From Candidatus Babeliales bacterium (GTDB taxonomy: Bacteria; Babelota; Babeliae; Babelales; JANWKD01): 64,000 bases of DNA. The position numbers were made by a program, and so were the translations under genes. The notes below the pieces were generated by a model. The model was not told where the DNA came from. It saw only the letters and a list, made by a program, of their open reading frames with translations, and did no database searches. Of this stretch, positions 6,828-46,204 are shown in pieces (within the stretch, counting starts at the first letter, position 1; each line of letters opens with the position of its first letter). The stretch is from the NCBI GenBank assembly GCA_963722075.1, contig CAVRJM010000001.1:1354566-1418565 (forward strand), in the 5' to 3' direction.

Positions 6828-7372
6828 ATTTATACTCAAAGTTTATGAAAGAATGCAGGATCACCATGGTCCGTCTATGTTAAAACTTCGCCGGACAGGC
6901 GCTTGCTATTACGGAATCCGTCGTAGCCTTGGCGAAGTCGGACGCGCTTCTCGTGACGTCGAAAGTCGAAAGTCGTCGTTGCGAGCTTGCGAAGCAATCC
7001 AGGTTATAATAATTAGATAAGAAACATATGAAACGCCCTGCTGTTTATTCTTTATGGCAAATAAAAAAAATGGAACCCTTTACACCTGAGTAACAGGAAA
7101 TATAATTCAGCGAATTTTTCAACATAAAAATAATAAAGTCGAATTTACTAGCAAATATAATTGTAAAATGCTTGAGTATGTTGAATTTTTTGGTGAAATG
7201 CAAACTGCTGTTATGCAAGAAAAACAAATAAAGGCTGGCTCTCGTTCAAAAAAGCTAATACTTATTGAATCGGCAAATCCAATGAGAGATTTGTAAATTG
7301 CCTGGATTGCTTCGACAAGCTCGCAACGACAACTTCTTCTAAATACATGTATTTTAATACTTTGAGTTAATT
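6828..7372 (+). mobile_element. Palindrome-flanked GIY-YIG cassette, decayed copy
   Basis: Outer IR ACTCAAAGT (6834-6842)/ACTTTGAGT (7359-7367); inner inverted repeats 6975-7003 and 7301-7330; upstream palindrome 6857-6960 contains a nested 75-bp element. Confidence 0.65.
7028..7296 (+). pseudogene. GIY-YIG endonuclease pseudogene
   Basis: MKRPAVY (frameshift) MANKKNGTLYT*VTGNIIQRIFQHKNNKVEFTSKYNCK...EKQIKAGSRSKKLILIESANP, colinear with the intact ORF 43840-44130. Confidence 0.9.
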
Positions 7373-7476
7373 GTATAATTCTTCAAAGACTTGGTATACC
7401 TAGTTAGTCTATCAATATCGTATGCACATTATATGAAATATACACGTTATTCAAGCGTTTTCTGGAACTTACCTTA

Positions 7477-8136
7477 TTATAATAAATTTTTTAAATCTAA
7501 TTCTGCATATGAATCAATAATTAAATCAGATTCCTGTACATATTCTCGATTTTTACTGGAATTAATACCAATACAAAACATGCCAGCTCCTTGTGCCGCT
7601 TTAATGCCATGCGCAGAATCCTCAATAGCAATACATTCTTGGGGATCGATGCCTAATTTTTCTGCTGCATAGAGGTAGATGGCTGGATCTGGTTTGCATT
7701 TATTATTCACGTGTGAAATGCCGTAAATATGTTCTCCAAAATAGTGCTCTAATTGGAGTGCTTGTTTAGTAACCAGCACGGTAGCATCATCAGCGTTAGT
7801 GGCAACGCCATTTTTAAGATTATGTTGTACTACTTTTTTATGAAACTCCAAAAAGCCATCAATAAATTTTACCTGTTTTTTGTATAATTTAACGGCGTTA
7901 TTTGATTTTTCTTGTACTAATTCTTTAATTGGCTCTTGCAAATTAAAGGTGTTTTTAATGATGGTGCACGTTTCGTGGAGTGCAAGTCCACGTATTTGGC
8001 GTTGTAATGGGCAATTGTCACCGGGCTGATATTGGATGCCGCGCGCGGTAATTAAATCAAGGGTTGCTTGACGCCAAATGTCTTCGGTATCGATAATGGT
8101 ACCGTCCATGTCAAAAATAATTGCTTTATATTTCAT
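7477..8136 (-). CDS. HAD-superfamily phosphatase (beta-PGM/CbbY-like)
   Basis: FDMDGT, ATN, KPDP, IEDS motifs. Confidence 0.9.
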   Translation of the reverse strand: MKYKAIIFDMDGTIIDTEDIWRQATLDLITARGIQYQPGDNCPLQRQIRGLALHETCTIIKNTFNLQEPIKELVQEKSNNAVKLYKKQVKFIDGFLEFHKKVVQHNLKNGVATNADDATVLVTKQALQLEHYFGEHIYGISHVNNKCKPDPAIYLYAAEKLGIDPQECIAIEDSAHGIKAAQGAGMFCIGINSSKNREYVQESDLIIDSYAELDLKNLL

Positions 8137-8227
8137 ATATAAAATCCTTTTATATCCAGTTGTTGATAGCGATGATTGTTGTTATAGTAATACGTATATT
8201 GTTTTTCTTTTATTGTAGGTAGTAATT

Positions 8228-43803: not shown

Positions 43804-44263
43804 GTCGTTGCGAGCTTGTCGAAGCAATCCAGGCGCATATTACAAACCTCTAAATTGTATACACAAATCATCCCAATAGGGATTTGCTGATTCAATCAGT
43901 GCCAATTTTTTTGAACGTGATCCTGCTTTTATATGTTTTTCTCGAGCAATAGCAGAAGTCATATTGTCAAAGAATTCAACGTATACAAGGAGTTGGCAAT
44001 TATATTTAGCGGTAAATTCAACTTTATTATTTTTGTGTTGTGAAATTCGTTGAATTATATTTCCAGTTACTCCGGTATAAAGAGTTCCATTTCGCTTATT
44101 TGTCATAATATAGACAGCTGGTCGTTTCATAATTTTGATTATTAGAATTTAAATTATTTTAACCTGGATTGCTTCGACAAGCGCGCAACGACGATTTTTT
44201 CGATGTGTACATCATTGCAAGGAGCGTATCGATGGTATCCAGTTTTTTGTCTTGAGTATAAAT
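43804..44263 (-). mobile_element. Palindrome-flanked GIY-YIG cassette, intact copy
   Basis: Inverted 30-bp repeats 43804-43833 and 44163-44192, a second palindrome 44211-44242, and terminal TTGAGTATAAAT matching ATTTATACTCAA at 6828. Confidence 0.7.
43840..44130 (-). CDS. Stand-alone GIY-YIG endonuclease (96 aa)
   Basis: AVYIM...TLYTGVT, catalytic Arg (QRISQH), AIAREK with metal-binding Glu, NPYW. Confidence 0.93.
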   Translation of the reverse strand: MKRPAVYIMTNKRNGTLYTGVTGNIIQRISQHKNNKVEFTAKYNCQLLVYVEFFDNMTSAIAREKHIKAGSRSKKLALIESANPYWDDLCIQFRGL

Positions 44264-44388
44264 ACCATTAAAAACTCAATAGAGTCTAGTTACAATTCAT
44301 TGTTGATTTTATTATATTAGCTCTATAGATCTACTATATCATGATATACAAATAATTTACATTCACATTTTATTGAAAGGCCTTTTTA

Positions 44389-46008
44389 ATGAAAACAAGC
44401 CAGCCTTCTTTTGAGTTGCCGTCTCCTTTTTTGAATAATGCCCAACAAAAACAATATGAGAGATTTCAAACGTTGTATAAGCAGCTGTATGAAGATAATA
44501 GGTTTATGGCCACATCTTCATTATTGCAACGGGCAGCACGGCGTTTTGCTCAATCAACCGCCCTTATATATAAAGACACCACCATCACCTTTGCTCAGCT
44601 ATATCACCATTCATTACAAATAACCAAGCAGCTTCTTTCTTTAGGTGTTAAGCACCAAGATAAAGTTTGTTTATTATTTGAAAATTCAGTTGCGTATTAT
44701 GAATGTTATTTTGGCATTTGGCAAACAGGAGCAGTAGTAGCCCCCCTTAATACCTTTTTAACTGAACGTGAATTAATCCATATTATTGAGGATTGCAAGC
44801 CTACCGTTCTTATTGTTTCAGAAGAATTTAGCAAAAAATTTGACCCTTCAGTTTTTAAAAATACGCAGGTATTAGTGGTGGCGCAACGGGAAACTGATTC
44901 ATCGCAAATGGTTTTTAATGATGAAGAATATGAAATTCCGTATACCGATCCTGATCAAATGATCGCGCTTTTGTACACCTCAGGAACAACCGGTTTTCCT
45001 AAGGGGGTTATGTTAAGCTCACGCAATATATTAACCAATGTTATTCAAATAATCTCAGCGGTTGAAGTAAGTTCAGCGGATCGATTATTGGCGATCTTGC
45101 CATTGTTTCATAGTTTTGCACAAAATATTTCCGTATGGTCTACCTTTTTTTTAGGAGCGAGTACCATTGTTGTTCCTAAGATAGAACGCCATTGGATTCT
45201 TGACGGCTTTAAACATAATCCGACGGTTGTTATAGGCGTTCCTGTTCTGTATGGGCTGTTGAGTATGATGAAGCATATTGATGTTTCCAATGTGCGTTAT
45301 TTTGTTTCAGGTGGTGATGCGCTACCAGATAAAATTAGATCTGTTTTTGAGCTGGTGTTTCAACGAAAATTATGCAATGGGTATGGGCTCACCGAAGCAT
45401 CGCCATTTATTGCAGCAGATTTGGATGATGAATTAAAACCAACTAATACTATAGGTCTACCAGCATTGGGAATTGAATGTTCATTGCGTGATGAGCTTGG
45501 CAATCCAATAGAAAAGAATCAAGTTGGCATTCTATGGGTAAAGGGTGATAATATTATGCTTGGTTATTATAATGCTCCTGAAGCAACGTATGATATGTTA
45601 AAAGATGGCTGGCTTAATACGGGAGATTTCGCCACTTTTGATAATCAAGGACGCTTATTAATTGTAGGGCGTTTTAAAGATCTTATTATACATAAAGGAT
45701 TTAACATTTACCCACAGGAAATAGAAAATATTTTAATGAGTTACCCAAACATGTTGAAGGTTGCGGTGATTGGTATTCCTGATGAGCAGACGGGTGAAGT
45801 GCCGGTGGCATATGTGGTAATAAAAGATGCAGCAGCCGATATTGAAAAGCAACTTAATCAATTATGTATGAATGCGTTGGCGGCCTATAAGGTGCCACGC
45901 CATTTTATTGTATTAGAAGATTTGCCTATGACGTCACTGGGTAAAATTGATAAAAAGAAGTTGAAGCAAGAATTTAAGAAGCATATGACGACTCAGTCGT
46001 CATCCTGA
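44389..46008 (+). CDS. Long-chain fatty-acid-CoA ligase (AMP-binding)
   Basis: YTSGTTGFPKG, GYGLTE, TGD, GRFKD, YPQEIE, GKIDK. Confidence 0.92.
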   Translation: MKTSQPSFELPSPFLNNAQQKQYERFQTLYKQLYEDNRFMATSSLLQRAARRFAQSTALIYKDTTITFAQLYHHSLQITKQLLSLGVKHQDKVCLLFENSVAYYECYFGIWQTGAVVAPLNTFLTERELIHIIEDCKPTVLIVSEEFSKKFDPSVFKNTQVLVVAQRETDSSQMVFNDEEYEIPYTDPDQMIALLYTSGTTGFPKGVMLSSRNILTNVIQIISAVEVSSADRLLAILPLFHSFAQNISVWSTFFLGASTIVVPKIERHWILDGFKHNPTVVIGVPVLYGLLSMMKHIDVSNVRYFVSGGDALPDKIRSVFELVFQRKLCNGYGLTEASPFIAADLDDELKPTNTIGLPALGIECSLRDELGNPIEKNQVGILWVKGDNIMLGYYNAPEATYDMLKDGWLNTGDFATFDNQGRLLIVGRFKDLIIHKGFNIYPQEIENILMSYPNMLKVAVIGIPDEQTGEVPVAYVVIKDAAADIEKQLNQLCMNALAAYKVPRHFIVLEDLPMTSLGKIDKKKLKQEFKKHMTTQSSS

Positions 46009-46204
46009 GGAGCGAAGCTCCGTGAGGATCCAGGAATAAAGAGGGTAATAATTAATGGATTCCCACGCAGGCTCGGAATGACAGTTTTGCTACTATTGTC
46101 ATCCCGAGGAGCTTGTGTCCGACTTCGCCAAGGCTACGCCGGATTCCGTAATGACAAGTGCGTGTCCGGCGGAGTTTTAACGGAGACGGAACGTGGGGAT
46201 CTAG
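45985..46204. repeat. Cluster of GTC-tagged palindromes, the last with a nested 74-bp element
   Basis: 45999-46033 forward; 46056-46082 inverted; 46098-46204 host with insert 46117-46190. Confidence 0.85.

Follow-up and report, generated by a model that had tools for sequence, protein, structure and literature searches.

How one repeat comes to lie inside another, and how often that has happened, is the question raised by a 64,000-nucleotide stretch of DNA from a Candidatus Babeliales bacterium (assembly GCA_963722075.1, contig CAVRJM010000001.1, positions 1,354,566 to 1,418,565; hereafter the window), which belongs to a 1.47-Mb genome of 35% GC and in which three segments of about 74 bp sit between the arms of GTC-tagged palindromes. 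The original prediction, made from the letters of the window, held that a single element had inserted three times independently into the loops of these palindromes, guided by their structure. A genome-wide comparison gives a different anatomy: the 74-mer consists of two inverted copies of a small hairpin, here called X, at two fixed sites of a repetitive extragenic palindrome (REP), with host loop bases between them. As to how this came about, we consider it somewhat probable (roughly 0.55) that the X pair, seated at two fixed sites in a REP of the CGTC/Ssn type, spread by copying from interrupted into intact REPs, with nicking by a single-domain GIY-YIG nuclease as the trigger.

The three window copies were located where they had been predicted, at positions 10699-10772 and 46117-46190 on the forward strand and 6869-6943 on the reverse strand, and are 85-89% identical to one another; the three uninterrupted hosts named with them were likewise recovered as intact REPs (Table 1). 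A hidden Markov model built from BLAST hits, with full copies defined as matches above 50 bits, identified 21 full copies of the 74-mer in the genome, all of which lie within the arms of CGTC-tagged REPs and none outside them. The predicted single polarity relative to the host REP was observed in the three window copies and in all 21 copies genome-wide, which also share the same outer ends (TCCG..CGGA). Each window copy does lie between the arms of a different GTC palindrome but not at its centre, as had been proposed, since the second half of the segment falls 3' of the host inner stem. These 21 interrupted REPs, hereafter composites, are intergenic, with one overlapping only the probably over-extended start of an open reading frame (ORF). 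Sixteen of the 21 lie on the leading strand (p = 0.027), but no such bias is seen in intact REPs (117 of 236) or in four other classes; as one of several tests performed, this bias was not relied on.

Both halves of the 74-mer fit the pattern of X, a hairpin of 26-35 nt with a head of the TGTC type, a stem led by CCG, a bulge of G(T/A)AG / CG(A/T)AG, a variable tip and a GGA end. The composites were parsed in 20 copies; the remaining one, at C1:929598, is absent from the parse and was included in the flank and two-X excision tests, which thus cover 21 copies. In the parsed set, pairing between the outer arms holds at 58 of 60 variable positions (32 in shuffles, with a maximum of 47), and the closing pair of the host inner stem that spans the first X is G-C in 10 copies, A-T in six, G-T in four and mismatched in none. 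Excision of the two X units, keeping 5-9 spacer bases, yields an existing intact loop exactly in 4 of 21 composites and with at most one mismatch in 11 of 21. This test lets 2-5 bases before the first X belong to the insert and, because these free left bases add freedom, it was assessed against two nulls: letter-shuffled spacers gave 0.06 exact and 1.0 near matches, and swapped spacers 1.4 and 7.2 (p about 0.02). When all bases before the first X were counted as host, an intact loop was rebuilt in 0 of 20 copies. The same two-site layout is present in another genus of the family (genome G003), where, by eye, seven of eight composites reduce exactly to intact loops and the eighth with one mismatch, the reduced forms keeping three different loop triplets. 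It also occurs with other first-X variants in genome G001 (L113, L116) and, in worn form, in G004 (L111).

Excision of the 74-mer as a whole rebuilt usual host loops in 0 of 20 copies and, with a free left end, gave one exact match and two of 20 within one mismatch, and was rejected as a model of the empty site. The clean insertion of one 74-bp element proposed originally, in effect an autonomous element resembling a MITE (miniature inverted-repeat transposable element) that enters the loop centre whole, is largely refuted and must be rated very improbable. Its uniform TCCG..CGGA ends and polarity are what such an element would display, and related X pairs do occur elsewhere: one lies, with some REP bases, in frame in manC (G000:C1:1087520-1087591, L031), where it adds about 14-16 residues relative to four of four relatives and leaves the 353-aa frame open, and two metagenome contigs (L103, L104) carry an X pair without a REP. 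Against it stand the failed excision, the lack of any free copy among the 21, and a middle portion that varies with the host outside it; moreover, only four end bases are complementary, and the junction tables contain no consistent target-site duplication.

The host itself is abundant, with about 230-240 intact copies depending on the rule used (223, 244 or 234); the short intact form was found 223 times in the genome and not at all in one shuffled genome. In its consensus, C/T-GTC is followed by a 5-bp stem and a GA bulge, then by an inner hairpin that varies, by GTR or GAA, by the second arm of the stem and by CCA. T precedes GTC in 149 of 244 copies and C in 89 (the search itself required GTC), and the third base of the unpaired CCA tail is A in 244 of 244 (the search required CC). 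In the parts consulted of the description of CGTC-tagged REPs by Di Nocera, De Gregorio and Rocco (2013, PMC3733652), the C/TGTC tag, AT at the stem base, the CCA tail, sub-families with paired stem changes and dimers are all shared with the host. The published REPs (families 1-4) have an 8-9-bp stem and a 4-5-nt loop, whereas the window hosts have a 5-bp outer stem, a GA/GTR bulge and an inner stem of many lengths. On these sequence features, the host belongs to the known CGTC/Ssn-motif class, in a bulged variant form. The degenerate pattern for the related SRM hairpins (PMC11893778, as far as consulted) has only two matches in the genome, neither at a bulged REP nor at a typical host, and matches at 5 of 28 related loci; because it misses these bulged copies, the hosts are classed as working like SRMs and not as strict members.

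X forms a repeat family of its own. Its pattern has 115 matches in the genome compared with 1, 0 and 0 in three shuffles, and the places occupied are four sites within REPs, the loops of other X units, the positions following tRNA CCA ends, and manC, where the pair lies in frame. A script placed 66 of the 115 inside REPs and five abutting tRNAs, an undercount, since about 27 of the other 44 lie by eye in worn REPs; with a looser pattern, X directly follows the CCA end in 8 of 36 tRNAs. Exact-pattern scans beyond this genome yielded six matches in one Babeliales record, possibly a genome already counted and so not independent, and three in metagenomes, none of the latter inside a REP. In about 15 of the 36 G000 tRNAs, another hairpin family (TCATTTC..GAAATG core) directly follows CCA, with a CAGGCCA-like tail as in tRNA-linked X; taken together, the two families leave most G000 tRNAs bearing a 3'-end hairpin. 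A third level of nesting was also seen, in which an X variant is set, always at the same point, into another X's loop, once in the window (Table 1) and at 15 more genome sites; in G003 and G001 a different 22-nt hairpin occupies a similar place.

The number of origins was addressed by comparing composites with intact REPs. In a test based on flanking sequence, the best match of 15 of 21 composites is an intact REP scoring above the highest shuffle, and three of 21 match another composite; the test is lenient, since 53 of 60 sampled intact REPs also pass, the pools compared are unequal (234 versus 20) and flanks may include a neighbouring REP, all of which counts against the copying explanation to the extent that it draws on this test. 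For that reason, weight was placed on the seven best composite/intact pairs, which all share the outer stem and have similar flanks. Composite C1:804504 and intact C1:375788 differ at one of 30 bases upstream and few downstream, the host CTTG being replaced by the module with no loop bases kept; at C1:851101 the GATC..GATC inner stem of the sister loci is retained, one strand of it between the two X. A window composite (6858-6960) and an intact REP (22944-22977) share a rare CATG variant and their flanks. The distance between X cores does not follow the outer stem (r = -0.03, p = 0.58) and tracks the long or short host class (r = 0.30, p = 0.0007). X cores are genome-specific (support for the G003 clade, 1.0), and all 21 copies combine a single first-X variant with a single second-X type. 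At least seven composites have an intact sister locus that matches them in arms and flanks. The X pair thus appears to have entered several REP lineages already in place, each time with the same variants linked, and these shared variants point to copying from a donor REP in place of a fresh insertion every time.

That all composites descend from one ancestral composite, an outcome that had been named as fatal to the prediction, is thus contradicted by at least seven loci with an intact sister of the same outer stem and similar flanks. The difference between host variants, which had been offered as proof of independence, is too weak for that purpose alone, because, among intact loops found more than once, 18 of 31 are seen with at least two different outer stems. 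Such loops with several stems would also suit an explanation in which a single ancestral composite was propagated as a complete REP, with its arms drifting by paired changes and intact look-alikes arising through loss or back-conversion. The fixed polarity, the tracking of host class by the X core, the layout common across the family and the composites C1:435773 and 1175994, which share rare variants and flanks, are also in keeping with it. Spread of whole composites is nevertheless improbable: composite flanks match same-stem intact REPs, often several, and not other composites, and a change of arms from ATTCC to GTTGC, together with the matching TCGAA bulge and flanks, would need exchange on both sides of the module. 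Two further sources of evidence on origins were of little use. Orthologous empty sites in relatives could not be used, as genes are only 65-80% alike and their order is partly rearranged, and four DNA sequencing runs gave scattered pieces, none spanning the locus and with one joint best read as a paralogous locus.

A stronger competitor, which we regard as possible though clearly less probable than copying, is fresh position-guided insertion, whereby free X would be written singly into REP hairpin junctions by a tRNA-linked GIY-YIG system and each composite would record two separate insertions. For single X units at the 3' edge of the REP loop, an exact empty allele exists in 9 of 12 cases across five different loops (swapped-halves p = 0.013), and likewise for 5 of 7 single X after GA. 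Further in its favour are the recipient loop bases kept between the two X, the X that follow tRNA CCA ends, a pair of REPs that are alike except that one has X after its CCA tail (L065), an X in opposite orientation at the GA site in G159 (L066), and an additional X in the second-X loop that does not track the core tree (r = 0.14, p = 0.07). Such insertion would be expected to mix variants and leave singletons; yet, despite the many X variants available, the peculiar-tailed first-X variant occurs only together with a second X (21 copies, with two damaged exceptions), and in some copies host bases are replaced and not kept. Of the predicted three independent, structure-targeted insertions, what stands is a repeat family lodged inside another at fixed positions and the entry of several lineages; between fresh insertion and copying, the latter is favoured.

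Each repeat family adjoins its own GIY-YIG subfamily. The window contains an intact 96-aa single-domain gene, P0001, between an inverted REP pair, and a broken paralogue also accompanied by REPs (Table 1). P0001 matches Pfam GIY-YIG, with no specific model in NCBIfam, and the Ssn-type layout of a small single-domain GIY-YIG gene with a hairpin 5' and 3' was found at three loci in this genome. A search of 150 genomes supplied, as its best hits, 28 related loci from elsewhere in the phylum; an inverted REP pair is present at 19 of them and an upstream tRNA at none, and REP-like matches number 62 in 16.8 kb near the P0001-type gene versus 5 in 43.6 kb further off. A second GIY-YIG type, represented by 29 related loci (again the best hits of 150 genomes), shows the order tRNA, X, spacer, inverted X, gene: X and a tRNA each lie upstream at 22 of 29, and the REP pair is present at 0 of 29, so that the flanking SRM-type hairpins of Ssn are missing from this type. 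Strict X matches number 38 in 8.7 kb upstream of this gene versus 6 in 44 kb at greater distance. Over 55 residues the two proteins share 33% identity, and the nearest solved sequence to the tRNA-linked one is 1zg2 (UPF0213, E = 9e-4). A 79-aa protein of the tRNA-linked type is encoded at L029:545-781. Because of the arrangement at the second type, the inverted X pair is taken as the native layout of the X family, and the 74-mer is such a pair with REP bases in its spacer. We infer from the adjacency that each tiny GIY-YIG nuclease is the putative mover of its repeat family. At L050 (G089), an X pair lies inside a partial tRNA-Arg copy just upstream of the second-type gene, with an intact tRNA downstream.

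No REP-associated tyrosine transposase (RAYT) was identified, the sole clear Y1 gene having neither REP nor X in 160 nt upstream and 260 nt downstream, and a search of the genome for a reverse transcriptase found none; both were rejected as candidate movers. The IS200-type Y1 transposase gene at G000:C1:156495-156854 has terminal hairpins of its own, which bear no relation to REP or X. MutS and ComEC domains were found in the genome.

In the copying explanation, X would first have landed at both REP sites in an ancestor of the family, as suggested by the presence of the layout in G001, G003 and, worn, G004. A REP strand that becomes single-stranded could then be cut by the single-domain GIY-YIG nuclease, which would nick the hairpin, and the cut REP could be repaired by annealing to another REP. 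Bacterial mismatch repair fixes single mismatches and ignores large loops. The two X loops might thereby be copied in as large unpaired patches, while the arms, flanks and often loop bases of the recipient would stay, and polarity would be inherited from the donor composite. The composite probably remains a substrate of the SsnA-like enzyme, X being tolerated inside the REP, because tag, stem and tail are kept and SsnA is reported to be tolerant of loop extensions: according to the portions consulted of Chenal et al. (2025, PMC11893778), SsnA cleaves single-stranded NTS hairpins and accepts such extensions.

Several observations weigh against this explanation or the anatomy beneath it. Ten of 21 composites, including all three in the window, reduce to no known loop, and for the window composites folding is no better than in shuffled sequences (z = -0.8, -1.1 and +0.3). 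ViennaRNA favours pairing of one X with the other (0.48 as DNA, 0.62 as RNA) over separate X hairpins (0.06), although the first X of G003 carries a paired change from TCCG/CGGA to TCCT/AGGA that favours self-pairing. The SsnA cut reported in the same partly consulted paper (PMC11893778) lies upstream of the hairpin and not inside it, and a DNA-moving role for either nuclease is a supposition. An intact sister could be a back-converted composite, reflecting the opposite direction of change, and the single X units with exact empty alleles described above resemble fresh insertion more than conversion. Both routes may have operated together, with rare insertion followed by copying. A broader proposal, which we advance only tentatively and hold to be somewhat unlikely as a whole, is that X and the tRNA-linked GIY-YIG gene constitute a second single-strand system, hitherto undescribed, which writes a hairpin of 26-35 nt into folded single-stranded DNA junctions (tRNA CCA ends, Ssn-type REPs and its own loop) and then rides on the spread of Ssn/REP. 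X would then be a hyperparasite of a selfish repeat, with both driven by nucleases of fewer than 100 residues and no transposase.

Parts of this picture are already published, to judge from the sections consulted of the papers cited here: the host class, its nuclease, and elements that target REPs (PMC1525189, PMC3184786). The gene of about 95 aa with GTC-tagged hairpins on both sides described for SsnA and NTS/SRM resembles the window's SsnA-like locus, and the terms 'tRNA', 'nested' and 'cd10449' are absent from the main text of that paper as far as it was available (PMC11893778), which in that part does not cover the X family, the tRNA-linked nuclease or interrupted SRMs. REPs lodged in other palindromes are described in A. 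variabilis, T. roseum and H. neapolitanus in the part consulted of PMC3733652; there the REP is the insert, whereas here it is the target, and a second hairpin family inside CGTC REPs does not appear in that part. IS1397, IS621 and ISPpu9/10 likewise use REPs as fixed landing sites, but these are kilobase elements with their own transposase, as presented in the sections consulted (PMC1525189, PMC3184786), while X is 26-35 nt, non-coding, found at several sites and self-nesting. REPINs and bacterial interspersed mosaic elements (PMC3733652 in part) resemble the present case in their inverted hairpin pairs with a spacer and their mosaic clusters, and differ in having GTAG tags and a RAYT in place of TGTC tags and none. 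In-frame Rickettsia palindromic elements (PMC3733652, same part) parallel the X pair in manC, unlike the 21 composites. Literature word searches found no paper on X or the tRNA-linked nuclease, a weak negative since the same searches missed the Ssn paper. Nor did word searches return a relevant paper for CGTC palindromic repeats with GIY-YIG, GIY-YIG-flanking REPs, GIY-YIG with RAYT, nested Rickettsia palindromic elements or Babeliae palindromes; GIY-YIG with palindromic element and tRNA mobility matched only a fungal paper, and X motifs as text one unrelated item. The contribution of the present analysis lies in the two-site anatomy, in the sister loci with and without the insert, and in showing that each repeat pairs cleanly with a nuclease of its own.

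As regards the multiplication of CGTC/SRM repeats, in the portions consulted Di Nocera et al. found no transposase for CGTC REPs (PMC3733652) and Chenal et al. only proposed a mobile origin of SRM (PMC11893778). Because this genome holds both filled and empty sister loci, differing by defined patches, along with two nuclease-hairpin pairs side by side, short oligonucleotides could serve to test how the repeats spread and what an uncharacterised GIY-YIG family does. For annotators, it serves as a warning that such '70-110-bp elements' are mosaics of smaller units.

Table 1. Coordinates of REPs, X hairpins and GIY-YIG genes in the window.
Feature	Position	Strand	Details
Composite REP with two X hairpins	10685-10782	+	Outer stem ATTCC/GGAAT, GTC tag, CCA tail
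First X hairpin, reverse form	10700-10725	+	In host apical loop
Spacer	10726-10742	+	Tail of first insert and bases pairing with host 5' inner strand
Second X hairpin, TGTC-first form	10743-10772	+	3' of host inner stem
Composite REP, long host class	46098-46202	+	Outer stem ATCCC/GGGAT; X at 46118-46143 and 46161-46190; host-like AAGTG at 46156-46160
Composite REP	6858-6960	-	Outer stem GTCAC/GTGAT, mutated tag; X at 6917-6942 and 6870-6899; host-like AAGCG at 6900-6904
Intact REP	22944-22977	-	Likely empty sister locus of composite 6858-6960 (same stem)
Intact REP, long class	42266-42299	+	
Intact REP, short class	46056-46082	-	
Second composite type	16101-16189	-	REP with two X at other sites (loop 3' edge; stem base)
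Second composite type with third X	35060-35181	-	Third X nested in loop of second X
SsnA-like GIY-YIG gene, P0001	43840-44130	-	Intact
REP downstream of SsnA-like gene	43804-43831	+	
REP upstream of SsnA-like gene	44165-44192	-	
Broken paralogue of SsnA-like gene	7028-7280	+	Frame disturbed near start, one in-frame TGA; REPs at 6975-7001 (+) and 7303-7330 (-)

Damaged or recombinant forms were seen at C1:987646 and C1:451250: in one, an intact REP is fused to half an X and a repeated right half, and in the other the left half of a composite is fused to the reverse strand of another REP. At window positions 10796-11330 lies a repeat about 500 bp long that is present in several copies in G001, G003 and G004; it contains worn X and REP pieces and is possibly a larger non-autonomous element. 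An Rfam scan of the window returned only RNase P, a class A RNA at 12749-13094 on the reverse strand. Finally, a tandem duplication of about 755 bp at 61879-63386, with 77-85% identity, spans paralogous ORFs.

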